Origin: an uncultured Planctomycetota bacterium
GTDB taxonomy: Bacteria; Planctomycetota; Planctomycetia; Gemmatales; Gemmataceae
Assembly: GCA_963784995.1 (NCBI GenBank)
Contig: CAWATZ010000006.1
Coordinates: forward strand, 264,853-328,852
Direction: 5' to 3'
DNA: 64,000 bases
Within the stretch, counting starts at the first letter, position 1, and every line of letters starts with the position of its first letter. Positions 4,065 through 24,062 of this stretch are shown here, in pieces. The notes under the pieces were generated by a model. It made no database searches. It had not been told where the DNA came from and saw only the letters and a program-made list of their open reading frames with translations. The position numbers and the translations under genes are program-made.

Positions 4065-6536
4065 ATGCGCAGCGGATCGTGGCTGGTGTTCACCCTCATT
4101 CTTGTCTGCGTGACCTCCCTGGCGCTCGGCCGCCAGCCTGGCAATTCTCCCCGAGGCCCAACTGCTGGGGGAGCTTCGGCATCCGCCCCAGCTGCCAGGA
4201 AGCCTCCCACGGTCAGCGAGGACGAAGAGGAACTCCGGTTGGTAGGCCTGCAAGTCGATGGTCCGTCCCTGGTGGAGTTCTTTCGGCAACGGGCCGCGGT
4301 CCCCGCCGACCCCAAAGGGCTCCAGCCCTGGATCAGGCGTCTGAACGATGTGGACCCCGAAGTGCGGACTCGTGCCGCACACCGGCTGCTGGGCCGAGGC
4401 ACGGTCGCCTTGCCCCTGCTGCGTCGCGTCGCCAATGACCTGGGCGACCCTGAACTCGCTGACCGAGCCCAGCACTGCATCGACTTGATCGAAAGGCGCT
4501 CTCCGACGAACGTGACGCCGGTCGCCGCCGTTCGCTTGCTTCTGCATCGCAAACCGGCCGGGGCCGTGGAAGCGCTGCTGGCCTATCTACCGACGGCTGA
4601 GTCTCCCGCCCTGGTGGAGGAAGTGAGCCGTGCCTTGACGGCAATGGCTTATGCCAACGAAAAGCCGCACGCCGCCTTGCTGGCCGCGCTCACCGACAAT
4701 ATGCCGCTGCGTCGCGCCGTGGCCGCAAGCGCCCTGGCCGGAAAGGACCATCCCGAAGCACGGCCAGCCGTCCGCAAGCTGCTGCGCGATTCCAAACCGT
4801 TGGTCCGTCTCCGCGTCGCTCTGGCGTTAGCCTCGGCCAACGACCTCGACGGTGTCCCCGTTCTGATTGAGCTGCTGGCCGAGGTCGTGCCACCGCGGGA
4901 CAAGCCCATCGAGGAACTGCTGGGCCGGCTGGCGGGCGACTGGGCACCGACCACGCCTCAGGGTGACGATGCGGTCGCACGCCGCATTCGCCGCGCCGCC
5001 TGGGCCAGCTGGTGGCGGAACAGCGATAGCCCCGCCCTGCTGGCCCAGATGCGTCGCCATACGCTCAGCAGCAGCGACCAGGCCAAGGTGCTGGCGCTGA
5101 TCGACAAACTGGGCGATGACTCCTTCGAGGTGCGGCAGACCGCCTCGGGAGCGTTGACCGAGTTCGGAACCCTGGCGATACCGCTGCTGCGCCAGGCCAC
5201 GCGCAGCACCGATGCGGAACGGGCGCGGCGGGCCGAGACGTGTTTGCAGGACATTGCCGACAGGGGCGGCAAACCCTTGCCGGAGCCAGTCTTGCGGCTG
5301 CTGAGCCTGCGTCAGCCAGCAGGGGCCGTGGAAGCCTTGCTGGACTATCTGCCCCATGCCGAAATCGAACACCACCGCGTCGAGGTCCGCAAGGCGCTGG
5401 CAGCCCTGGCGGTGCGTGCCGGCCGACTGGAGCCAGCCCTGGTGCGGGCGCTGGCAGATCCATTGCCGGGCCGCCGACTGGCCGCTGCCGAGGCCATCCT
5501 GGCAGCGGGCACCCTGGAGCAACGCGCTGCCGTGCGCAAGCTGCTGCGTGACACTGATCCGTCGGTGCGACTGCGGATCGCCGCGGCCTTGGCCGGCAAG
5601 CGCGAGCGCGAAGCGATCCCGGTGCTGATCGAGTTGGTGGCTGAAGAGTCCTCCGACGCCAGCGGCGAAGCGGAGGAAATCCTGTATCGCCTGGCCGGCG
5701 AAGGTGGACCAAAGGTCGAGCCAGACAGGAGTACGGCTGGCCGGCGCCAGCGCCGCGACGCCTGGGCCGCCTGGTGGAAGCAGGTCGCTCCCTCGGTCAA
5801 TCTGGGCGTTCTGGAGAACCACGTGCCCTTGCTCGGGTATACCCTGCTGGTGAATAACAAACAGGTGCTGGAACTGGACCAGGACGGCAAGCCGCGCTGG
5901 ATCATTAACAACCTTCCTACCCCGCTGGATGCCCACGTCCTTCCCGGCGACCGCGTGCTGATCGCGGAGTTCTACAGCAAGCGTGTGACCGAGCGCGATT
6001 TCCAGGGTGCCATCCTGTGGCAAAAAGAAGGGCTGGAAGACCATCCGGTCAACGTTCAGCGTCTGGCCAACGGCAATACCTTTATCGCAACTGTTAATGG
6101 ATTGCTCGAAGTCGATCGTGCCGGCAAGACCGTCTGGAGCAAGCCGTTTCCAAACCTCACCGCGGCGTGCAAATCTCGGGATGGCAGCATCACCTGCCTG
6201 GACGGCGACGGCCAGTGCATTCGCCTCAGTTCTGTCGGCAAGGAACTGAAGCGGTTTCCTTCCGGCGGCAGGCCGACGTACAAGAGCGCAATCGACGTGT
6301 CGGCCGATGGCCGGATCTTGATTGCGCTGCACAACCAGGTATCGGAATTGGACGCCGAGGGCAAAGTCCTCTGGCAAGCCCCGGCACCGGGAATCACCAC
6401 GGCCACGCACTTGCCCAACGGCCACGTGCTCGTTGCCGGCGGCTTCCGGGGGGTAATCATGGAGCTGGATCGGTCGAGCAAGGTTGTCTGGGAATCCAAG
6501 CCCGGGCAGGGGGGCATCCGAGCGCGGCGGCGCTGA
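4065..6536 (+). CDS. HEAT-repeat + PQQ-like beta-propeller protein, paralog copy 3 (intact, 823 aa, signal peptide)
   Basis: ATG 4065 after caggagagcctcc. Uninterrupted frame. HEAT (PBS-lyase-like) repeats followed by a PQQ-like propeller. Confidence 0.85.
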   Translation: MRSGSWLVFTLILVCVTSLALGRQPGNSPRGPTAGGASASAPAARKPPTVSEDEEELRLVGLQVDGPSLVEFFRQRAAVPADPKGLQPWIRRLNDVDPEVRTRAAHRLLGRGTVALPLLRRVANDLGDPELADRAQHCIDLIERRSPTNVTPVAAVRLLLHRKPAGAVEALLAYLPTAESPALVEEVSRALTAMAYANEKPHAALLAALTDNMPLRRAVAASALAGKDHPEARPAVRKLLRDSKPLVRLRVALALASANDLDGVPVLIELLAEVVPPRDKPIEELLGRLAGDWAPTTPQGDDAVARRIRRAAWASWWRNSDSPALLAQMRRHTLSSSDQAKVLALIDKLGDDSFEVRQTASGALTEFGTLAIPLLRQATRSTDAERARRAETCLQDIADRGGKPLPEPVLRLLSLRQPAGAVEALLDYLPHAEIEHHRVEVRKALAALAVRAGRLEPALVRALADPLPGRRLAAAEAILAAGTLEQRAAVRKLLRDTDPSVRLRIAAALAGKREREAIPVLIELVAEESSDASGEAEEILYRLAGEGGPKVEPDRSTAGRRQRRDAWAAWWKQVAPSVNLGVLENHVPLLGYTLLVNNKQVLELDQDGKPRWIINNLPTPLDAHVLPGDRVLIAEFYSKRVTERDFQGAILWQKEGLEDHPVNVQRLANGNTFIATVNGLLEVDRAGKTVWSKPFPNLTAACKSRDGSITCLDGDGQCIRLSSVGKELKRFPSGGRPTYKSAIDVSADGRILIALHNQVSELDAEGKVLWQAPAPGITTATHLPNGHVLVAGGFRGVIMELDRSSKVVWESKPGQGGIRARRR

Positions 6537-10799: not shown

Positions 10800-11186
10800 A
10801 GGCAGATGACGCTCCGGCGTCGCAGCAATTGGCAACTTCGCCTCCATCGACTGCGACGCGGCAGGTGAGTCAACTGCTCGTCGGGCGCCGACGAACGGCT
10901 ACCAGCCGGTGTCTAACCTGAACGAGATCAGCGCCCCCGGCTTCAATAGCGCCTGGCCTTTCTCGGTGAACTCGACGAGGAGCCCATCAGGTTGCCGCTC
11001 GACCCGGAACAGTGTCCTGTCCACCGGCCCCCGCGCCAGGGGATCTTCAACCAGCGCGTAGTAAGTGCCGTCCAGGCCCAGCCTATCGTCGCGTAAACCG
11101 TCCCGGACGCCAACACAGAGAGACAGCGGATCGCCCGTGCAGCCGTAGTCCGACGGGATGCCGGTCAGTCGGAACTTGACCGGTAT

Positions 11187-11602
11187 TTAACGCCGATTTC
11201 CACGGAGCGGTAATTCCTCACACGCCAACGAGAAAGCGACAAAGTAGGTCATGATTATCCGTGTACAATTCCTGGGGAAACCCCTTCTTCCGGACAGACC
11301 AGTGGTGAGATGGAGCATCCCGTGTGAGTCTTTTCACGGGAGAAACAGGGAACTTCCGGGACCCAAAATCTAGCGATCCGTTTAGTGGCTTTCTGATTCG
11401 CCTGCGCCGACGCACTGGGAATACAGCCGATTGCGGTCGTGCTACTCCAATAGCGACAATGGGGAGAGTATAAATTAACATTGCCAACTCGGCCTCCGGA
11501 TTACCGGAAATACTTCACAAGGCAATCCGTATTCCCCGAAAAACCCTGACCTCCCCCCGAAAAAGTGTGAGGAATTACCGCCCCGTGGAAATCGGCGTTC
11601 AA
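11187..11602. mobile_element. 416-bp element bounded by ~37-bp near-perfect terminal inverted repeats (TTAACGCCGATTTCCACGGAGCGGTAATTCCTCACAC ... GTGTGAGGAATTACCGCCCCGTGGAAATCGGCGTTCAA); MITE-like, lower-GC interior, no convincing ORF
   Basis: Left arm 11187-11223, right arm 11565-11602, 1-2 mismatches. Interior ORF 11218..11487 looks spurious. Confidence 0.4.
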
Positions 11603-11665: not shown

Positions 11666-13231
11666 TCACCACCTTGCACCCCGGCAGCGCCTCGCGCAGG
11701 CGCTGGCCCCTTCCTCGGTGATCGCCGTACCGAAGGCGTAGACAGACCGCAGTTTCTTGAGGCCGCGCAAGTGGACGAGGGCGCCGTCGCCCCGGTTCCC
11801 CACGTAGCTGAGCGTCAGGGAGCAAAGGTTCTCCAGATCCGCCAGCGCCGCCAGGCCGTCGTCTGTAACCCCGTGCAGGTTCTCCAACCGGAGTTGCTCC
11901 AGGCCGGCCAGGGCGGCGACGTGGCGGATGCCCGCGTCGGTGACGTGGTCACAGCCGTTGAGCTTCAGCTCGCGCAGCCCCTGGAGCCCGCGCAGCAAGC
12001 CCAGAGAGTCATCGGTCAGGTGGCGGCAGAACACCAGGTCGAGGGCGCGCAGGGAAGGCAGCTCTGCCAGGACAGCGAACCCGGAGGCAGAGATCCGTTC
12101 GTTGTGGCCCATCTCGAGGCGCTCCAGGACCGGGGCGGTGGTCAGGCGGGCCAGGGCAGCGTCGGAAAGGCCGCTGCACTCCGAGCAGTCGAGTTCGCGC
12201 AGGGAAGGCAGGCGTGCGATCGTCTCGAAGCCTTCAGCGCCGGGCCTGGTGCGGCGCACGTCCAGCTTGCGCAAGCTCTCCAGGCCCGCCAGGTGGGCGA
12301 CCCCAGAGTCGGATAGGCCGGTGCAGTAGGCGAGGTCCAGCACCTCGAGACGCGACATGCCGGCCACGCAGGCGAACCCTGCCGCGGTCAGGTTGGCGCA
12401 GAAGCAGAGATGGAGCTTCCGCAAATTGACCAGGGCGCGGAGGCGAGCGGCGCCGGTGTCTCCGAGGGACTTGCTGGCGCGAAGGTCGAGGTGTTGCAAG
12501 CCAGTCAGGTCGCCAACGTGAGCGAGGGCGGCGTCGGTCCGCGGGGTCTTCAGCCCCAGGGACAAGGAGCGGAGGCGGGAAAGGTCAGCCAGCGGCTCCA
12601 GACCGGCCGGGTCGAGGGCCGGGTCGTCCAGGCTCAGGTCCAGAGAGTGGAATCGGGGCAAGCGGCGCAGGTGGCGGAGCCCGGGACCGCGGACGGGCTT
12701 GAGCGAACCCAGGCTCAACTCTTGCAAGCGCTCGAGTTCACCCAGAAAGGCGAGGCCGTCGTCGCTGAGGTGGGACGAGCCCCACAACGACAGCGTCCGC
12801 ACCGCCCCGACCCGGTCTGCCGTCAAATCTCCGTTGCGGGCGGACTGGACGCTCAGGCCCTCGACCCACCCGGAGCCGAGGGCCGCTCCCGCTGCCACCG
12901 GGAAGGATTTGCCGGCCAGGGAGCGCCCCAGCAAGTTGGCGGAAAGGAGGCCGTCGCGAACGTACCAGGATCCCGAGGGCCGACCCAGCCAGGGCCCCCG
13001 GAGCGACTCGAGGATCGCGTCGGCACGGACCCGGTCGGGGCTGCGGGCATCCCAGGGAAGCCGGTCGCTGGTGGCCGAGAGGCGCACCATTTCCCCGCGT
13101 GGGTCGCCGCGTCGGTCGAGCCAGTCGGCCAGCCCCAGACGGGGTGCAAGCTCTTCGGGCGCGTCGTGGCAGGTGGCCAGCAGGGCCATTTCTTCTGCGG
13201 TGGGGACAAAGTGGGCACTGCGGCGAGCCAT
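11666..13231 (-). CDS. Leucine-rich-repeat (CC-type LRR) protein with N-terminal repeat-companion domain (TIGR02996-like, ...LADWLDRRGDPRGEMVRL...)
   Basis: Many LxxLxLxxC LRR units. N-terminus matches the ADWLEE-GDP-RAEFIRL type motif that I recall as TIGR02996 of Gemmata repeat proteins. Confidence 0.75.
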   Translation of the reverse strand: MARRSAHFVPTAEEMALLATCHDAPEELAPRLGLADWLDRRGDPRGEMVRLSATSDRLPWDARSPDRVRADAILESLRGPWLGRPSGSWYVRDGLLSANLLGRSLAGKSFPVAAGAALGSGWVEGLSVQSARNGDLTADRVGAVRTLSLWGSSHLSDDGLAFLGELERLQELSLGSLKPVRGPGLRHLRRLPRFHSLDLSLDDPALDPAGLEPLADLSRLRSLSLGLKTPRTDAALAHVGDLTGLQHLDLRASKSLGDTGAARLRALVNLRKLHLCFCANLTAAGFACVAGMSRLEVLDLAYCTGLSDSGVAHLAGLESLRKLDVRRTRPGAEGFETIARLPSLRELDCSECSGLSDAALARLTTAPVLERLEMGHNERISASGFAVLAELPSLRALDLVFCRHLTDDSLGLLRGLQGLRELKLNGCDHVTDAGIRHVAALAGLEQLRLENLHGVTDDGLAALADLENLCSLTLSYVGNRGDGALVHLRGLKKLRSVYAFGTAITEEGASACARRCRGARW

Positions 13232-13514
13232 CGTTGTGGAACCTCCAGGTCAGGCGAGCGCGGTTGGTGCGGCACGTGTTCCCCGCCACACAATGATGGC
13301 TCGTCGCGCACTCCGAGTCGCCCGAGTAAAGGATACTGTCGTGCCAGAAATGTTGCAGCACCGGGTTGGGCGATCGCACCTGGGCTGCCCTTCCCAAGGA
13401 GGCTGCGTTGTCCTGGGGCTTTCGTTCCAGGGAAGATACTGCTGGCAGAACAGCAGGTCCTGTCAACCCGCTCCGCGGATCGCAATACGGCTACATCGGC
13501 GACCTCGTGTCGCA

Positions 13515-13610
13515 CCCGAACGCCGAAATTCAGCAGCGGCGGCCGCTCCTGAGACCTGGAATTACAGGAGCCATGTTGCGGCCGCCGTCTGCTGAAATGG
13601 TTGGTTCGGC
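13515..13610 (-). other. attC-like recombination site (96 bp) of the cassette carrying the aspartic-protease gene pair
   Basis: Read on the minus strand: GCCGAAC (R'') overlapping the stop codon, imperfect inverted repeat CAGCAGACGGCGGCCGC / GCGGCCGCCGCTGCTGAA, terminal GTTCGGG (R'). Confidence 0.55.
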
Positions 13611-13984
13611 TACCTGTGCCGGAGCCGTTTGATCGTTACTTTGCCGCGGTAACGAACTTGCATCTTCAACTCGTGACCGCGCAACAGCCTCATACCGACC
13701 AGGGGATCGGTGTCTGCTTCATCGACCAGAATTTGACGTACTTTGCTGTCCCAGACCACTTTACCCACGTACACCCGGAAAACGCAGGTGCTGCCGTCGG
13801 CCAGTGTTGCCCGTTGCGTGCTTTGCCAGCGCAGGCCCAAGAGCGTAATCAGAGCCGGCGGTAAGGTGAGCGCTCCGGTATATCCCGAGTCAATGACCGC
13901 TTCAATCTCTTGCTCGCGGCCCTTGCGACCTCGAACTGTCAAGCGAATACGGGCTTCGTCGGCCTTGACCGCGCCAGTAATCAT
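13610..13984 (-). CDS. Retropepsin-like (clan AA) aspartic protease, ~124 aa (DSGYTG active-site-like motif)
   Basis: Motif ...VIDSGYTGALTLP... Overlaps the upstream partner gene by 4 bp. Confidence 0.65.
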   Translation of the reverse strand: MITGAVKADEARIRLTVRGRKGREQEIEAVIDSGYTGALTLPPALITLLGLRWQSTQRATLADGSTCVFRVYVGKVVWDSKVRQILVDEADTDPLVGMRLLRGHELKMQVRYRGKVTIKRLRHR

Positions 13985-14259
13985 GGCAAGTCCTGGCGTA
14001 GTTGTCGCCCGCCGAATCTTCGCGTCGAGCGAGAGCCGATGCGCACCATCCAGATTTGTGCCTCGGGCAGGCGACGCCGCAGTTTGTTGCCTGCCTTCAT
14101 CTCATCGGCAGCAATTTCGTACTGACCCGTTTCTATGTCGATGGCGAGAAACTTGCCTGTGTCTTGGGCCGTCAGCTTGGGAAGAATCTCCTTTTCGTAG
14201 ATGGCATCGCCACGCCTCGCGAATTCTTCTTTGCTGTAGCGCGGTTGTAAGGTTGCCAT
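13981..14259 (-). CDS. Small partner protein (92 aa, DUF5678-like?) co-transcribed with the clan AA aspartic protease
   Basis: 4-bp overlap (translational coupling). ...KFLAIDIETGQYEIAADE... No confident family assignment. Confidence 0.55.
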   Translation of the reverse strand: MATLQPRYSKEEFARRGDAIYEKEILPKLTAQDTGKFLAIDIETGQYEIAADEMKAGNKLRRRLPEAQIWMVRIGSRSTRRFGGRQLRQDLP

Positions 14260-14493
14260 GCGTTTACTCCCGGAGCCGCTCTCGTATGAGGTTGCATTGT
14301 TCCCTGTTCATTTTACTGATCGACGTCCGCAGTCGCCAGCCCTAAACCGAGGGCCCATTTGATACTCCGCTTGGAGGTAATCTACCCTGCCCCCATTTCT
14401 CTCCAACGAAAAGAAGAAAAAAACCTGCAGCATTCCGGAGTGCGCCTATTGACAAAAGAGGTCAGTGAGCGGTGCGCCCGACGTTGTTTCGCC

Positions 14494-14883
14494 CTATAGC
14501 TCGAACCACGACACGGCCTCCGACATCTGTTTAGCGCGAAAGAACTCCTTGGCGACGGAGCATGCCGTCTCGAACGGGACGATGAAATCGTTTGGCGTTT
14601 GCTCGCCGCTTGCCGGATCGCAACCTCGATACACAAGCGTCGTCCATCCGCCTTCGGGCAAGCCGTGACCGCCGAGACACCGGAAGCCGGGGTGGCCATC
14701 CCGCGGGAAATAGTGGACATCGGCCACATCCCCGCTGACGCGGAGTGCCAGGGCGGGATACTTTTCCTCGTTGGGGGTCAGCCAGAATAATCCGCCTCCG
14801 CGATCGTCGCGCCAAGCAAGAGCTGCTTCCAAGCTCTTGTCGTCCTCCGCGTGCCACGTTTGACGATACCCGTCTATTCGCAC
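14494..14883 (-). CDS. Cassette-like small protein (129 aa), possibly Imm1-family polymorphic-toxin immunity protein
   Basis: ...AWRDDRGGGLFWLTPNEEKYPALALRVSGDVADVHYFP... resembles Imm1 signatures from memory. Small, minus strand, inside the attC array. Confidence 0.5.
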   Translation of the reverse strand: MRIDGYRQTWHAEDDKSLEAALAWRDDRGGGLFWLTPNEEKYPALALRVSGDVADVHYFPRDGHPGFRCLGGHGLPEGGWTTLVYRGCDPASGEQTPNDFIVPFETACSVAKEFFRAKQMSEAVSWFEL

Positions 14884-14898
14884 TGGAATCCTCTTCGC

Positions 14899-14997
14899 TG
14901 CGAACGAAAAGGATAAGCTGCCGGGGCCGCCTGCAAGACCTCCATGCCGCGCGAAACCAGGATGGCGGCCCCGGTCAGCTTCATCCGGTGGTTCGGC
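14899..14997 (-). other. attC-like recombination site (99 bp) downstream of the lipoprotein cassette gene
   Basis: Minus strand: GCCGAAC ... inverted repeat GCTGACCGGGGCCGCC / GGCGGCCCCGGCAGC ... GTTCGCA. Same architecture as 13515-13610 and 15684-15782. Confidence 0.45.
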
Positions 14998-15040
14998 GGC
15001 CTGCCACCCTGTGTTGGCCCAAGCCGGAATTGCCCCCTGG

Positions 15041-15658
15041 CTACTTCAACCCGTCCGTGAGACCTGGCTCCTTTTCTTGCAGATGTTTCAGCAGCACTTC
15101 CGCATAGCGCTCGACGTCCGCTGTCTCCTCAAGCTTCGGCACCTCAGCGGGCAGGGCGATCTTCTTCTGCTGATAGGTAGGCGAAGCGGCTGTCAGGTCC
15201 AGCACGAAGACTCGGCCGGCGGCAGGATCAACCTCCTTACCGCCCACGGTAAGCACCTCTTTCGTGACCGCCGTGCGTTCCTTATTTAGCTCGTAATGGG
15301 CCGCCGCTTCAATGCGCTTGCCGTTGATCGTGCAGACGCTTTTGACTTCCACATCGCCCTGGCTGCGCGCGTAGCCGTCCAGGCCGAGCGAGCTTTCGTT
15401 GGATGTGGGCGGCAGCTTGAAAAGAATGATGTAGGTCAGTTGCTGGGAGGTCTTGGGCTTCGTCACCGTGCCAAACGTCACCCCAGGCTTGCCGGGGAGG
15501 ACCACGAGATGGCCGCCCGAAACCGCGAAATCGTTCGTAGCGGAGAGGAAACCGGCCGTGGTAATTTTTGGCTGAGGAGCGACACGATTGCCACAGCCGA
15601 CGGCGCCCGTCAGGGCGATAAGCAGCCCAAAACCATGCCAAGCACAACGTGTGTTCAT
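15041..15658 (-). CDS. Hypothetical lipoprotein (signal peptide + lipobox LTGAVGC), cassette-encoded
   Basis: MNTRCAWHGFGLLIALTGAVGCGN... Minus strand between two attC-like sites. Confidence 0.65.
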   Translation of the reverse strand: MNTRCAWHGFGLLIALTGAVGCGNRVAPQPKITTAGFLSATNDFAVSGGHLVVLPGKPGVTFGTVTKPKTSQQLTYIILFKLPPTSNESSLGLDGYARSQGDVEVKSVCTINGKRIEAAAHYELNKERTAVTKEVLTVGGKEVDPAAGRVFVLDLTAASPTYQQKKIALPAEVPKLEETADVERYAEVLLKHLQEKEPGLTDGLK

Positions 15659-15683
15659 CCGGAATTGTCTCCCAGTGCTGCGA

Positions 15684-15782
15684 GTCGAACGCCCCGCTCA
15701 GCAGCCGGCTCACGCGGGCCAGACAGCGAAGCTCGACAAGACTCACTCGCGTGGCCGGTCTGCTGCAGCTTTTGGTTCGGCG
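15684..15782 (-). other. attC-like recombination site (99 bp) 8 nt downstream of the stop of ORF 15791..16348
   Basis: + strand: GTCGAACGCC-ccg-CTCAGCAGCCGGCTCACGCG ... CGCGTGGCCGGTCTGCTGCAGC-TTTTGGTTCGGC. Nearly identical ends to site 13515-13610 (GAACGCC...CAGCAGC / TCTGCTG...TTGGTTCGGC). Confidence 0.55.
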
Positions 15783-15790
15783 TTCCTTTG

Positions 15791-16348
<558 letters not shown>

Positions 16349-17048
16349 CCACGCTACTCCAAGAGGGCAGACCAGACGAGAGGTCTTTGTGTCTCAGGGA
16401 CGCACCAAGGTAGCCGCATTACGCGGCCCTCGACATCTGCATTTCCCTGTGAGGTCTGTTGGCTCTTGTTTGGAGATAACGGCGGGCAGTCCATTCGCCA
16501 TCCGCTCCGTTACGTCGTTGTTGTCACCCTGGCGGACCTTCACCCTGTCTGACCCATTACAGCTCAGCGTTCGGCTACTACGCCGCCTCCGCCATCCTGC
16601 CCGCTCGCTGGCATTGTCGCGTCTGTTGGCCCGGTTGGACTCCAGGTACAGATGCAGCGGTTTAGGATTTCCCACCTTCCGTAAGCACAGACTGTAGAAC
16701 CCTTAGCTGCCTGCTCCACGCCGGGTGGCTGGGTGACAACACGTTTGGCGTTCGGAAACCAAACGTCCCTCCACCATACCTTTTGGTCCAGGTGATGCAG
16801 CCGTTGCACCTGTTATCACTTACGACGCTCACTCGCAGGTTTCTCGCGTCAGCATCGGTTCAGGGTTCGACACGCAGCCACTTTCGGCTGGCAGCCGGTG
16901 TTCTTTGTCAGCAGGCTTCCCACCTTACCCTTTGCCAAAGGGGAACGCAGGCTGCTCAACCCTTACACCGTTGTCATGGTATAGCTCCTTCAGAGCAATC
17001 TGTACATACGTTAAGTGGCGCACCCGAACTTGTGATTAGGCTGACCGG

Positions 17049-17206
17049 CCGGTCAGCATATTTCTCCCGGTCAGCATATTTCGCCTGGTCTCGCTATCAA
17101 GGCTCCGGTCAGCCTATTTCCGCTTCCCGGTCCGCCTAGCAAGGCGTCGGTCAGCCTATTTCCAGCTGCCCGGTCAGCGTATTTTTCCCCGGTCAGCCTA
17201 TCACGG
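17049..17206. repeat. Array of seven direct repeats CCGGTCAGC[A/C]TATTTC (16-18 bp, spacing 0-22 bp), preceded by perfect palindrome CTGACCGGCCGGTCAG (17041-17056), about 120 bp upstream of intI
   Basis: Units at 17049, 17067, 17105, 17127, 17147, 17170 and 17189. Non-coding. Could be IntI accessory sites in attI or regulator binding sites. Confidence 0.6.
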
Positions 17207-17242
17207 TTTGTCCCCCAGTTCAATTTTTTTCTTTTTTTCTTC

Positions 17243-17272
17243 TTGACATCGTGACAGAGAAAAGTTAATGAT
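17243..17272 (+). promoter_or_regulatory. Sigma70-like promoter (TTGACA-N18-TAATGA) for intI in an AT-rich island
   Basis: TTGACA at 17243-17248, TAATGA at 17267-17272. The only AT-rich stretch in the region. RBS AGGAGG at 17312-17317. Confidence 0.35.
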
Positions 17273-17276
17273 CTCG

Positions 17277-17291
17277 TGTTCATATTGAACA
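17277..17291. promoter_or_regulatory. Perfect 15-bp palindrome TGTTCAtatTGAACA between the -10 element and the intI RBS; candidate operator (LexA-type?)
   Basis: Perfect 6-3-6 palindrome overlapping the predicted transcription start. I recall integron integrases being commonly SOS-regulated. Confidence 0.35.
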
Positions 17292-17323
17292 AAGAGTCAC
17301 ATTCCCTGTTCAGGAGGAAAGCC

Positions 17324-18142
17324 ATGTCTGATGATCGCGGTCCGTCCCCAGAGTCGTCCGCCCAGCCATCGCCGCCGCGCTTGCTCGACCAGTTGTGTCA
17401 AGTCGCACGGAAGCGTGGCCATGCCGAATGGACTGTGGCCGACTACGTCAAGTGGGTCCGCCGCCTGGTCCGCTTCCACGGCCAGCGCCATCCCCGGGAG
17501 CTGGGTCTTGCGGAAGTGTCCCAGTTCCTGGAGTCGGTTGCCCAGACGGAGAAAAACCCAGTCCGGGCCATCGCCGCCAGCCGGGAGGCCCTCGATTTCC
17601 TGTATCGCGAGGTGCTGTGCCTGGACCTGGGAGAGCTGCCCTGGCCGAGGCCGCCCCGGCTGCTCGACCAGGTCCGCCAGGTGCTGCGCGTCCGCCACTA
17701 TGCCCGCCGTACCGAGGACTGTTACCTCGGCTGGATCCTCCGCTTCATCTTCTTTCACAAGAAACGTCACCCCCGCGACATGGGCGCTGCCGAGGTGGAG
17801 CAGTTCCTCACCGACCTGGCGGTCCGCGGCCACGTCTCGGCCAGCACGCAAAACCAGGCGCTGAACGCCCTGGTGTTCCTGTATCAGCAAGTATTGGAGA
17901 TCGACCTGGGCCGGCTGGACGCGGTGCGGGCGCGGCGGCCGAAACGGCTGCCCGTGGTGCTGGCTCCCGAGGAAGTCGCGGCGGTGCTGCAACGCATCGA
18001 GGGAGGGGACGGCGTCTTCCAGTTGATGGCCCGGCTGCTCTACGGCTGCGGTCTGCGGCTGCTGGAATGCTGTCAGCTGCGTGTCAAGGACGTCCAGCTG
18101 GCCCGTGGGCAGATCGTCGTGCGCGGCGGCAAGGGGAACAAG
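17324..18142 (+). pseudogene. intI: Integron integrase intI remnant: IntI1-like N-terminal half with a tandemly duplicated, diverged N-terminal domain, truncated after GKGNK (no catalytic R-H-R-Y domain)
   Basis: ...HYARRTEDCYLGWILRFIFFHKKRHPRDMGAAEVEQFLTDLA...VSASTQNQALNALVFLYQQVL...RRLPVVLAPEEVAAVLQRIEGGDGVFQLMARLLYGCGLRLLECCQLRVKDVQLARGQIVVRGGKGNK aligns closely with IntI1 residues ~20-175. No frame downstream encodes a tyrosine-recombinase catalytic domain. Confidence 0.8.
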
Positions 18143-18228
18143 GAAGTAGCTGCCGTTGGGCAGGGTGCAACAGGAACAAGACCCAGGGATGGTAGCCGGG
18201 CACCGTCTGCCTGCCCGACAGCTCCTGG

Positions 18229-18305
18229 TCGTTGCAGCGTTGCAGTCCTTGCACGCATTGCACTGCAATGCAGGGCGGCTGGGCTGGCTGCAACGCTGCA
18301 ACGAC
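18229..18305. repeat. Inverted repeat (17-bp perfect arms TCGTTGCAGCGTTGCAG / CTGCAACGCTGCAACGA with an internally palindromic 43-nt loop) just downstream of the intI truncation point
   Basis: Left arm 18229-18245, right arm 18289-18305. Lies between convergent intI remnant and pentapeptide gene. Confidence 0.5.
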
Positions 18306-18517: not shown

Positions 18518-19825
18518 TTACCGAATCACCTTCCGGCTGAAGGCGACGATGAACAGGCCCCAGAGCAGGGTGCCCAGCAGCGATTCCACGATCAGCGGCA
18601 CGTTCATCCAGTCCTTGGCCATGTCGCTGACGCTGCTCAATCCCGACGTGAACACCGCCACGCTCTTGAACAGCCCGATCAGGATGCGGTTGTTCAGCTG
18701 CGTCTTCTCCGGGCCAAAGGGCAGCTTGTCCGGCTCGATCGTGAAGCAATCGATGCCCACGGCATAAATCGCGGCGAACACGACAATGATCAGCACGGCC
18801 GCCCGCACCGCCCGGAAGGGGTTGGTGCAGTAGCCGCAGCCGTGGTCCAGCAGCAACCAGTCGGCGAACTGGCCCAGCTTGGTCCAGGGACGCAGCCAGG
18901 AACGCCGGCTGCCGCGGCGCTGGTTGACCTTGAAGCGATAGAACGCCCAGTCCTCCTGCTCGTAGCGGTGCAGGTTCTCGAAGACCCGCTTTAAGAATGC
19001 GTACTCGTGCATCGCCGTCTCGTAGTCGCCCTTCTCCTCGCTGGCCAGCCGGCCCTGGATTTGCTCCGGATTGATGCGCAGCCGATCGCCGATGACGTTG
19101 CTGAAGGCGAACTGCTGCTTCGGCCCCTGCTGGATCGACTCCAGGTAGGTGTAGTCGTTCAGCTTGGCCTTGCTCAGATCGAGCAAGCCCTCGAAGCGCG
19201 AGGTGGTGAAGTCCAGCTTCTTGGCCACCGCCGAGCCGCGCATCAGGAAGTGGCCGTTGAAGACGCACCCCTGCAGTACGAAGCCCTCCTCGGCGTGGAA
19301 ACTGCGGAAGTCCACGTCGATCAGGAACCGGCAATCCTTGAAGTCCACCCAGCCCTCGAAGCGCGTCTCCCACAGCCGGACCGTTCCCTCAAAGGTCGAG
19401 GCGCCAACGACGAACTTGCCCTTGCAGGTCGCGTTCTCCAGGTTGAAGCCCTCCTTGACCTTGAAGCGATAAAACTGCGCCCGGATCAGCGTCGAGCCGG
19501 ACAGGATGAGCCCCTTGCGGAACTCATTGTCCTTGTTGGACTCCGGCCGCTCGATCGTGCAGGCGGTCATCTTGACTTCGTCCTGGAAGATGACGCCGTC
19601 AAACCGAGGCCGAACCAGGATACAGTGCCGCAGGCGAACTGGGGCGGTGAACTCGCCCCGGAAGACCAGCCGCTCCACGCGAACGTTCTCCAGCGTCTCG
19701 CCCTTGCGGAGGCGTTCCAGCGCCTCCTTGGCCGACATTTCGGTCCGCGCAGCGCCCTCCGGGGCTTCCGGCTGCAGAGTCGTTGTTCCCTCGAAATCGT
19801 CGCTGTCCGATTCGGGCAAGCTCAT
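18518..19825 (-). CDS. Pentapeptide-repeat protein fused to a C-terminal two-TM ion-channel-like domain
   Basis: Tandem A(D/N)LxX-type pentapeptide repeats. C-terminal hydrophobic helices with a pore-like segment. Confidence 0.65.
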   Translation of the reverse strand: MSLPESDSDDFEGTTTLQPEAPEGAARTEMSAKEALERLRKGETLENVRVERLVFRGEFTAPVRLRHCILVRPRFDGVIFQDEVKMTACTIERPESNKDNEFRKGLILSGSTLIRAQFYRFKVKEGFNLENATCKGKFVVGASTFEGTVRLWETRFEGWVDFKDCRFLIDVDFRSFHAEEGFVLQGCVFNGHFLMRGSAVAKKLDFTTSRFEGLLDLSKAKLNDYTYLESIQQGPKQQFAFSNVIGDRLRINPEQIQGRLASEEKGDYETAMHEYAFLKRVFENLHRYEQEDWAFYRFKVNQRRGSRRSWLRPWTKLGQFADWLLLDHGCGYCTNPFRAVRAAVLIIVVFAAIYAVGIDCFTIEPDKLPFGPEKTQLNNRILIGLFKSVAVFTSGLSSVSDMAKDWMNVPLIVESLLGTLLWGLFIVAFSRKVIR

Positions 19826-23126: not shown

Positions 23127-24062
23127 TCAACCCTGCTCGGTCCCTCGCGGATGGAAGCGCTGGTGAATGGCCTTGAGCCGGTCGCGGTCCACGTGGGTGT
23201 AGCGCTGGGTGGTCTGGATGCTGCTGTGGCCGAGCAGCTCCTGGACGGTGCGCAGGTCGGCGCCGCCGGCCAGCAGGTGCGTGGCGAAGCTGTGTCGCAG
23301 CGTGTGCGGACTGACGCGGGCGTTCAGGCCGGTGCGGCGGACGTACTTCTTGACCACCACCCAGAGCATCTCGCGCGTCAGTTGCCGGCCGCCCCGGCTG
23401 ACGAAGACCCATTCCGTCTCGGGTGCGGTCTGGACCAGCGAGGGCCGTTGCTGTTCCAGGTAGGTGCGCAGGGCGTGGATGGCGGGCTTACCGATCGGCA
23501 CGATGCGCTGCTTGCTGCCCTTGCCGAAGCATTTGAGGAAGGACGAGTCCAGATGCAGGTCGGTCAGCTTGAGCCCGACCACCTCCGAGGCCCGCGCGCC
23601 GGTGGCGTACAGCGTCTCCAGGATGGCCCGGTCGCGCAGGTAAAAGCGATCCTGCGACAGGGGGGCTTCCAGCAGCCGGGTCACCGCCTCCGGGCTGAGC
23701 ACCTGCGGAATGCGGGCCCACAGGCTCGGGGAGCTGAGCAGATCGACCGTGCCGGTGGTGGTGCGCTCCTCCAGGCGCAGGAAGCGGTAGAACATCTTGA
23801 GCGAGACCAGGTGCCGGGCCTGGCTGGCCGGCGCCAGCCCTTCGGTGCGGAGGAACTCGACGTAGTCGGTCAGCTCGCGGAGGTTGGGCAGCAGGTAATT
23901 GGCAACGCCGCCGCCGGCCACCCAGTGGAGGAACCGATCCAGGTCGCGCGTGTAGGCCAGGTAGGTGTTGTTCGCCAGGCCGCGCTCGCCCTGGACGTAG
24001 TGGCGAAAGGCCTGGATGTCGTCGTTGAGAGCGGTAAAGCGGGCGGTCTCGTCGGTGGGCAT
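23127..24062 (-). CDS. xerD: Tyrosine recombinase XerC/XerD family
   Basis: Full catalytic domain ...ARASEVVGLKLTDL...GKGSKQRIVP...HTLRHSFATHLLAGGADLRTVQELLGHSSIQTTQRYTHV. Confidence 0.85.
   Translation of the reverse strand: MPTDETARFTALNDDIQAFRHYVQGERGLANNTYLAYTRDLDRFLHWVAGGGVANYLLPNLRELTDYVEFLRTEGLAPASQARHLVSLKMFYRFLRLEERTTTGTVDLLSSPSLWARIPQVLSPEAVTRLLEAPLSQDRFYLRDRAILETLYATGARASEVVGLKLTDLHLDSSFLKCFGKGSKQRIVPIGKPAIHALRTYLEQQRPSLVQTAPETEWVFVSRGGRQLTREMLWVVVKKYVRRTGLNARVSPHTLRHSFATHLLAGGADLRTVQELLGHSSIQTTQRYTHVDRDRLKAIHQRFHPRGTEQG

Follow-up and report, generated by a model that had tools for sequence, protein, structure and literature searches.

The integron recombination site attI1 is the closest described counterpart of the element reported here, a direct-repeat array at 17033–17204 in a 64-kb stretch of contig CAWATZ010000006.1 from an uncultured Planctomycetota bacterium (the whole stretch is called the window). 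Nearly all work on attI recognition and accessory repeats concerns attI1, a site with two repeats (PMC4792948, PMC8946536). IntI1 binds these repeats, direct repeat 1 (DR1) and DR2, as supplementary sites; they are dispensable for attI1 × attI1 recombination, favour attI1 × attC recombination, and have been proposed as topological filters (PMC8946536). Direct repeats are missing from most other attI sites described, among them attIA of Vibrio cholerae and most environmental ones (PMC3146285, PMC8946536). In attIA of the chromosomal integron, the cassette promoter (Pc) lies upstream of attI, and the site is hence transcribed (PMC3948777). How integron integrases recognise double-stranded attI, and the role of accessory repeats, are poorly understood. 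No paper on the attI family described below, or on a duplicated N domain, was found in the literature. As judged from sequence comparison, the array is probably the accessory part of attI in a chromosomal integron of a Planctomycetota and soil-metagenome lineage, and its units would be accessory IntI half-sites aiding attI × attC recombination.

The repeat cluster reported in an earlier note on this DNA was real. When up to 3 mismatches were allowed, the pattern CCGGTCAGCMTATTTC had 8 matches in the window against 0.66 expected, a number reached by 0 of 100 dinucleotide-preserving shuffles, and 7 of the 8 matches fell within 17033–17204. An in-register parse, with which repeat finders were concordant, divided this interval into eight direct units and one inverted unit of 16 bp each. 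The inverted unit CCGGTCAGCCTAATCA (17033–17048, minus strand) holds the L-box heptamer GCCTAAT (17041–17035). The direct units lie on the plus strand. DR1 and DR2 (both CCGGTCAGCATATTTC; 17049–17064 and 17067–17082) and DR4 (CCGGTCAGCCTATTTC; 17105–17120) have 0 mismatches, DR6 (TCGGTCAGCCTATTTC; 17147–17162) has 1, and DR7 (CCGGTCAGCGTATTTT; 17170–17185) and DR8 (CCGGTCAGCCTATCAC; 17189–17204) have 2 each. DR3 (CTGGTCTCGCTATCAA; 17085–17100) and DR5 (CCGGTCCGCCTAGCAA; 17127–17142) are degenerate "B-type" units recovered by both the repeat finders and the parse. Six of the direct copies are thus good ones, and the two degenerate direct copies had been overlooked in the earlier note.

The start-to-start spacing of the eight direct units is 18, 18, 20, 22, 20, 23, and 19 bp, and the pitch of the array is quasi-regular at about two helical turns. 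The irregular spacing of 0–22 bp described before was an artefact of the two missed units. In each unit, TGACCGG comes after an IntI-core-like heptamer, AWTAKGC (compare GTTRRRY). The palindrome CTGACCGGCCGGTCAG was found at 17041–17056 as described, at the head-to-head junction of the inverted (L) unit and DR1. DR3 plus DR4 and DR5 plus DR6 form a 42-bp tandem duplication (period 42, 82% identity), which partly explains the unusually high copy number in the window.

Two other identities of the array were rejected. An array of clustered regularly interspaced short palindromic repeats, already set aside in the earlier note, needs identical repeats of 23–50 bp with unique spacers of similar length; the units here are 16 bp, the gaps between them are 2–7 bp, and one copy is inverted. 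A promoter array in which each unit serves as a −10 element did not fit, since the −35-like and −10-like elements are spaced by 9–12 bp. A single window-specific combination passed the promoter scan, and that one was not conserved.

The array lies between the ATG of intI (17324) and the first cassette and adjoins the cassette junction at 17029–17024, which is the layout of an attI site. The distance from the last copy to the ATG is 120 bp, as previously estimated. From intI to the cassettes, the order is eight direct repeats oriented as R, the inverted L-bearing copy, a 5-bp spacer (CACAA), and the R box G/TTCGGC, where the slash marks the presumed crossover. The R box and cassette junction, GTTCGG, occupy 17024–17029 on the minus strand, and in about 60 loci CCGAAC keeps a fixed distance of 3–5 bp to the inverted unit. 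The window site reads GCCTAAT-CACAA-GTTCGG. L and R form an inverted pair with the GTT of R at the boundary between conserved and variable sequence, and the direct units and the L unit are one 16-mer in opposite orientations. The original R heptamer GTTCGGC is interrupted by an intron, and its final C is at 16263; once the intron is taken out, the junction is ...CCGGTCAGCCTAATCA-CAA-G/TTCGG-C-CGCAGG.... The R box GTTCGGC recurs unchanged as the R′ end of the local attC sites, and the same heptamer ends the attC sites of the family.

The architecture was compared with attI1 unit by unit, using an attI1 sequence that was confirmed, at ≥99% identity, in at least 5000 class 1 integron plasmids. 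In both, the site lies between intI and the first cassette, L is inverted relative to R, and G/TT stands at the cassette junction. The repeats in both share the IntI core-like heptamer, are oriented as R, and have a pitch of about 19–21 bp. Between heptamer starts, DR2 and DR1 are 19 bp apart in attI1, and the direct repeats of the window are 18–23 bp apart. The DR1–L distance is 19 bp in attI1 and 21 bp in the window, and the L–R distance is 13 bp in attI1 (GCCCTAA-AACAAA-GTTAGGC) and 12 bp in the window. These values bear out the earlier assignment to a DR1/DR2-type position, with matching orientation and pitch and more copies; the feature is conserved across a whole integron family rather than peculiar to this locus. 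The differences are in scale and extent. attI1 has 2 repeats, 3–5 are typical of the family (range 2–5), and the window has 8; the conserved unit is 16 bp (heptamer plus TGACCGG) in the family and about 7–10 bp in attI1; and the site is about 180 bp long in the window and about 65 bp in attI1. The family, unlike attI1, has a near-perfect palindrome of the L unit and DR1, and its integrase, unlike IntI1, carries an extra N-terminal SAM-like domain. As in attIA, the site is the attI of a chromosomal integron with an L/R simple site. The window family has the most repeat-rich attI found, either described or observed.

The conservation of this architecture was investigated by scanning public metagenome contigs for two CGGTCAGCNTAT 12-mers 4–34 nt apart. 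At least 120 contigs, mostly from soil, were recovered; the pattern required two perfect 12-mers, which makes the locus sample a biased one. About 60 non-redundant loci share the arrangement GCCGAAC, 3–5 nt, the inverted unit TGAKTAnGCTGACCGG, 0–2 nt, and 2–5 direct units, with the L unit/DR1 junction conserved at 0–2 nt between the two CCGG. Four direct units per locus was the mode (27 loci), followed by five (13 loci) and three (12 loci), with spacing mostly 19–22 bp. The window array is the largest in the sample, with seven direct units at the 3-mismatch threshold of the census, which one degenerate unit passes. Beyond the direct units, a conserved GTCAA / T-rich / TTGAC / TGTACA-N3-4-GT block is followed by a ribosome-binding site (RBS) and intI, where intI is present. 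On the cassette side, sequence past GCCGAAC is unrelated between loci, which is the behaviour expected of a recombination junction. attC-like sites numbered 17 on the side away from intI and 2 on the other side, an approximately 8-fold enrichment that is only indicative because the detector was insensitive (one of the three window attC sites was found).

Integrase genes fetched independently gave the same result. In 7 of 8 loci with an intact integron-integrase gene (about 450 aa), the full layout was present 150–250 bp upstream of the start (L244, L247/248, L249, L250/251, L253, L254–256, and L257, where L and a number denote a locus). The eighth, L246, has repeats and no recognisable simple site. 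The comparison of related attI regions that the earlier note had called for found one layout both in the metagenome loci and beside intact integrases. The order of integrase, array, and junction was identical across all intI-linked loci, and no gene other than the integrase was conserved beside the arrays among the intact-integrase loci.

The binding protein was considered next to the variation of the unit between lineages. The L unit is CCGGTCTATCTAATCA and the direct repeats are CCGGTCTGTCTATYAC in L250; the corresponding sequences are CCGGTACATTGAATCA and CCGGTCTGTTGATCAC in L244, and CCGGCAGGTCTAATCA and CCGGCAGGCTATGGAA in L254. In these three lineages, the unit changes jointly in L and in the direct repeats. 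Since the simple site, of which L is a part, has to be bound by the integrase, the joint change points to the integrase as the binder. Recognition of an attI site is by its cognate integrase (PMC2095811, PMC4792948). A sequence logo beside every GCCGAAC was uninformative owing to variable spacing and was replaced by 26 fold-filtered attC sites, whose consensus is ..CCGGTCwGcTGCAGCGcCTG-GTTCGGC. The core CGGTCWG lies 18–19 nt from GTT in attC as in attI and is a conserved part of the L″-side attC arm. The occurrence of GGTCAGC inside an attC site, remarked on earlier, was found as CGGTCAGC at 14972–14979 in the attC site 14997–14900, and it reflects this conserved attC feature. The unit is best described, on these comparisons, as the putative extended L-type half-site of the family. 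We infer from the same comparisons that IntI would be the binding protein and that its binding would affect recombination.

The integrase linked to these arrays was examined through P0002, a full-length homologue 90% identical to the window gene. Residues 114–428 of P0002 align to the whole of VchIntIA, the crystallised V. cholerae integron integrase (2a3v), with an E value of 3e-79, including the IntI-specific insertion, and on TIGR02249 the score of P0002 is 469.6 bits (cutoff 265). The 274-aa fragment in the window has thousands of homologues, and the best 120 cover at least 81% of it; untruncated members among these 120 are about 450 aa long, and many carry the Joint Genome Institute annotation "integron integrase". 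By sequence, the array-linked family can be identified as genuine IntI. Residues 1–113 of P0002 form N1, an extra four-helix SAM-like domain in tandem with the canonical N domain (predicted structure, predicted local distance difference test score about 90). In the window gene, N1 occupies 17324–17659. The tandem N-terminal SAM-like domain was present in all array-linked integrases examined and is absent from IntI1 and VchIntIA. The conservation of N1 is far below that of the canonical N domain. The N1-like domain was found in 692 clusters (50% identity, E ≤ 1e-10), mostly with two matched stretches. The duplicated N-terminal domain may be related to the array.

A conserved N-domain-only IntI protein, for which the earlier note had thought the array might serve, was rejected. 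The array also accompanies intact integrases of about 450 aa, and the truncated homologues break at many scattered positions, which indicates decay.

The proposed function follows the model for attI1. Integrase monomers would load cooperatively on the phased repeats, on one helix face at a pitch of about 20 bp, and this loading would concentrate and hold the integrase at the L/R simple site. The attI arm would be bent, shaped, or wrapped, and the double-stranded attI could then pair productively with a folded attC. A wrapped attI might also impose directionality. The role of the array would be that of an enhancer or "topological filter", as proposed for DR1 and DR2 of attI1.

The attP arm sites of phage lambda and the cer and psi sites of Xer recombination are other cases in which about 100–200 bp of accessory protein-binding DNA lies beside a core site. 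The proposed role of this DNA is to form a wrapped complex and so to confer directionality or topological selectivity. The lambda arm sites differ in sequence from the core and are bound by a separate N-terminal domain, and the accessory DNA of cer and psi is bound by host proteins. In contrast to both, the accessory units of the window share the sequence of the core L half-site. A heterobivalent integrase resembling lambda Int may be considered tentatively, though it is rather unlikely: N1 would bind the TGACCGG extension or a neighbouring unit and bridge array and core into an intasome-like wrapped attI, and the array and the N-domain duplication would be one co-evolved innovation. If true, this would be an arm-site system not previously known for integrons.

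Several observations weigh against an accessory role in attI recombination. The R box resembles the unit in the heptamer only. With a variation of 1–4 bp, the unit spacing is loose for a rigid nucleoprotein lattice. The leader transcribed from Pc probably includes the array, and a transcriptional or RNA-level role is conceivable. Of the 48 loci that extend 500 bp or more past the array, 37–38 have no integrase gene; an integrase-like open reading frame (ORF) was found in 10–11, and several of these are truncated. As judged from these loci, the array often outlives intI, and its function could be independent of a cis integrase. The loss appears to be patterned. The GTCAA box was kept in 25 of 38 integrase-less loci, but the TGTACA box was kept in 3 of 38, compared with 9 of 10 intI-bearing loci. 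These counts suggest that deletions tend to remove intI and its promoter and to spare attI and the presumed Pc. The orphan arrays could be remnants; alternatively, an integrase in trans may serve them.

One soil contig, L179, has two attI-like arrays (2720–2790 and 5709–5793) in the same orientation 3 kb apart, and no integrase gene was present within 7 kb of them.

The region between the array and intI was analysed for promoters. A divergent promoter block at 17218–17272, with the pattern GTCAA / T-rich / TTGAC, aligns across 13 loci. The candidate Pc −35 element is GTTCAA, the reverse complement of TTGAAC, at 17218–17223; it would read into the array and the cassettes and is followed by a T-rich tract. 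The promoter scan placed the −35 element (TTGACA) of the integrase promoter (Pint) at 17243–17248 and its −10 element (AATGAT) at 17267–17272. The palindrome TGTTCATATTGAACA at 17277–17291 lies between the Pint −10 and the RBS as a candidate operator. At the equivalent site, TGTACA-N3-4-GTnnA overlaps the −10 in L244, L247, L249, L250, L253, L254, and L257. Planctomycete LexA does not use the Escherichia coli box (PMC3108266). The TGTTCATATTGAACA palindrome may thus serve as the operator of a repressor, perhaps of a non-canonical LexA.

The position of this block bears on the strongest alternative, in which the array is an operator for a non-IntI regulator, such as a host transcription factor, that controls the divergent Pc and Pint or blocks transcription from Pc into the cassettes. 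The candidate Pc −35 lies just upstream of the array, which places the array in the presumed cassette leader, and the array persists in loci without intI, most of which retain the GTCAA box. However, the L box is itself a copy of the unit and co-varies with the direct repeats, the CGGTCWG core also occurs in the attC arms that IntI must bind, and no regulator gene is conserved beside the arrays. A regulator array is therefore considered unlikely.

The repeats could also work at the RNA level, where they would give the cassette transcript from Pc a 5′ leader that is structured or binds a protein. The fold of the minus-strand transcript has a z-score of −4.9. However, the z-scores of the single-strand folds (−4.9 and −3.8) are trivial, since one inverted copy can pair with any of eight direct ones. 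There was no covariation beyond repeat identity, the position of Pc is itself presumed, and the attI1 comparison already explains the architecture. An RNA role is very unlikely on this evidence.

The array has some likeness to plasmid iterons, which are also phased direct repeats (17–22 bp) and, like the units here, probably bound by monomers of one protein. Direct repeats with a phase of about 20 bp occur in iterons and in the ends of Tn7 and Mu, which would be consistent with a generic satellite, a plasmid-type iteron origin, or a transposase-binding array at a transposon end, unrelated to the integron. A scan of genome contigs with the bare 16-mer, as the earlier note had advised, was mostly unproductive: nearly all of its 119 matches were single chance ones, and the informative one was L091. 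This locus, in a Gemmataceae metagenome-assembled genome (CAWIDK010000004, 7169–7261), has an array and the downstream promoter block without an L/R simple site or intI, and could be read in favour of such an origin.

The remaining data oppose it. No further copy of the array was found in the window outside 17033–17204, and 71–72 of 111 multi-copy metagenome loci (about 65%) carry the signature of GCCGAAC and an inverted unit, which is not the scatter of a generic satellite that the earlier note had raised. The array here, compared with plasmid iterons, has no Rep gene, origin features, or plasmid link and is tied to an integron recombination site. A plasmid iteron or replication origin was rejected because the neighbours are cassettes and intI and no rep-like Pfam match was found in the ORFs examined; rep and transposase genes are not adjacent, and integron features invariably accompany the arrays. 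L091 retains the Pc/Pint block and appears by sequence to be an integron remnant. A scan of viral contigs gave 4 loci, none with the 16-mer unit, and no phage link. This group of explanations is largely refuted by the present data and is highly improbable. The roughly 40 of 111 loci without the attI signature were set aside; they include human-gut arrays flanked by CTGGGACCACGGTCCC and others flanked by GGGGCGGAGCTCTACGCCCC.

The L091 array lies beside a gene for a glycine-betaine-type ABC transporter.

The interruption of the R box, absent from the earlier note, is a group II intron of 760 nt without an ORF (16264–17023, minus strand), which lies between GTTCGG and the final C in the same orientation as the cassettes. 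Its domain V/VI matched RF00029 with 70.1 bits at 16264–16338, a weaker D1–D4 match was found at 16870–16983, and its 5′ end is GUGCG. A second copy, a 5′ fragment at about 13232–13514 (minus strand; D1–D4 match 13337–13457, E 0.0012), lies at the GTTCGG junction after the attC site 13610–13515 and is cut off by the start of a leucine-rich repeat (LRR) protein gene (11666–13231). Group IIC-attC introns are antisense to the cassettes, in the attC bottom strand, and carry a reverse transcriptase ORF (PMC3001079). In contrast, both window copies are cassette-sense and have no such ORF, and one copy is in attI rather than attC; the introns were accordingly not placed in that class. None of 20 other attI loci carries an intron, and for this reason the intron can be regarded as incidental to the array. 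That the palindrome and repeats are a homing target supplying a stem-loop for the intron is the least probable explanation of all: the full copy does sit 16 nt after the L/DR1 palindrome and the second 15 nt past an attC stem, with the GTTCGG junction in both, but the array is conserved where no intron is found, and the proposal could account for the landing site of the intron and not for the existence of the array.

The family is widespread in soil metagenomes and Planctomycetota. Its attI sites span 2 to 8 phased repeats and differ in their units by lineage, and its integrase has an extra DNA-binding-type domain; this natural series would allow a direct test of the "enhancer / topological filter" idea. 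In integrons outside classes 1–3, attI could be annotated by the signature GCCGAAC-N3-5-TGAKTA..ACCGG-(CCGGTC..TAT)n, and the same signature could flag integron remnants without intI.

The integron in the window is decaying. The intI-like ORF starts at the ATG at 17324, with an RBS at 17312–17318. The truncated gene has 274 codons (17324–18145, plus strand) and encodes two tandem SAM-like N domains (Phage_int_SAM_4) and the first third of the catalytic domain (Phage_integrase) by Pfam. It matched positions 1–160 of the 315 of TIGR02249, with 255 bits against the cutoff of 265, and is not an intact integrase with the IntI-specific insertion and catalytic residues. Homology to P0002 ends at 18145, codon 274, and a tblastn search of the window with P0002 found the missing 3′ part nowhere else. 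Past codon 274, the frame reads through 282 unrelated codons to 18994 and overlaps a convergent pentapeptide-repeat gene (18518–19825, minus strand). On these features, the local intI can be identified as a truncated pseudogene. Because intI is truncated and the intron splits the R box, any activity of the window system would need an integrase in trans.

The cassette array at 13515–16263 consists of small minus-strand ORFs with attC sites at 15781–15691, 14997–14900, and 13610–13515. The attC sites were detected by motif plus fold. Each is an imperfect palindrome that begins with GCCGAAC and ends with GTTCGNN on the minus strand. The sites bound cassettes and lie on the strand opposite intI, as in a functional integron.

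Other features were observed around these genes. A perfect 18-nt inverted repeat, GTCGTTGCAGCGTTGCAG ... CTGCAACGCTGCAACGAC, lies at 18228–18245 and 18288–18305 with 42 nt between its arms, starting about 80 bp beyond the end of the intI homology. A second tyrosine-recombinase-like coding region at about 23166–23714 (minus strand) has 31% identity to IntI residues 208–422 (E 4e-17) and is separate from the integron integrase gene. At the far end of the cassette array, just past the LRR gene, two 38-nt inverted repeats with 95% complementarity (11186–11223 and 11565–11602) flank 341 bp and resemble a miniature inverted-repeat transposable element.

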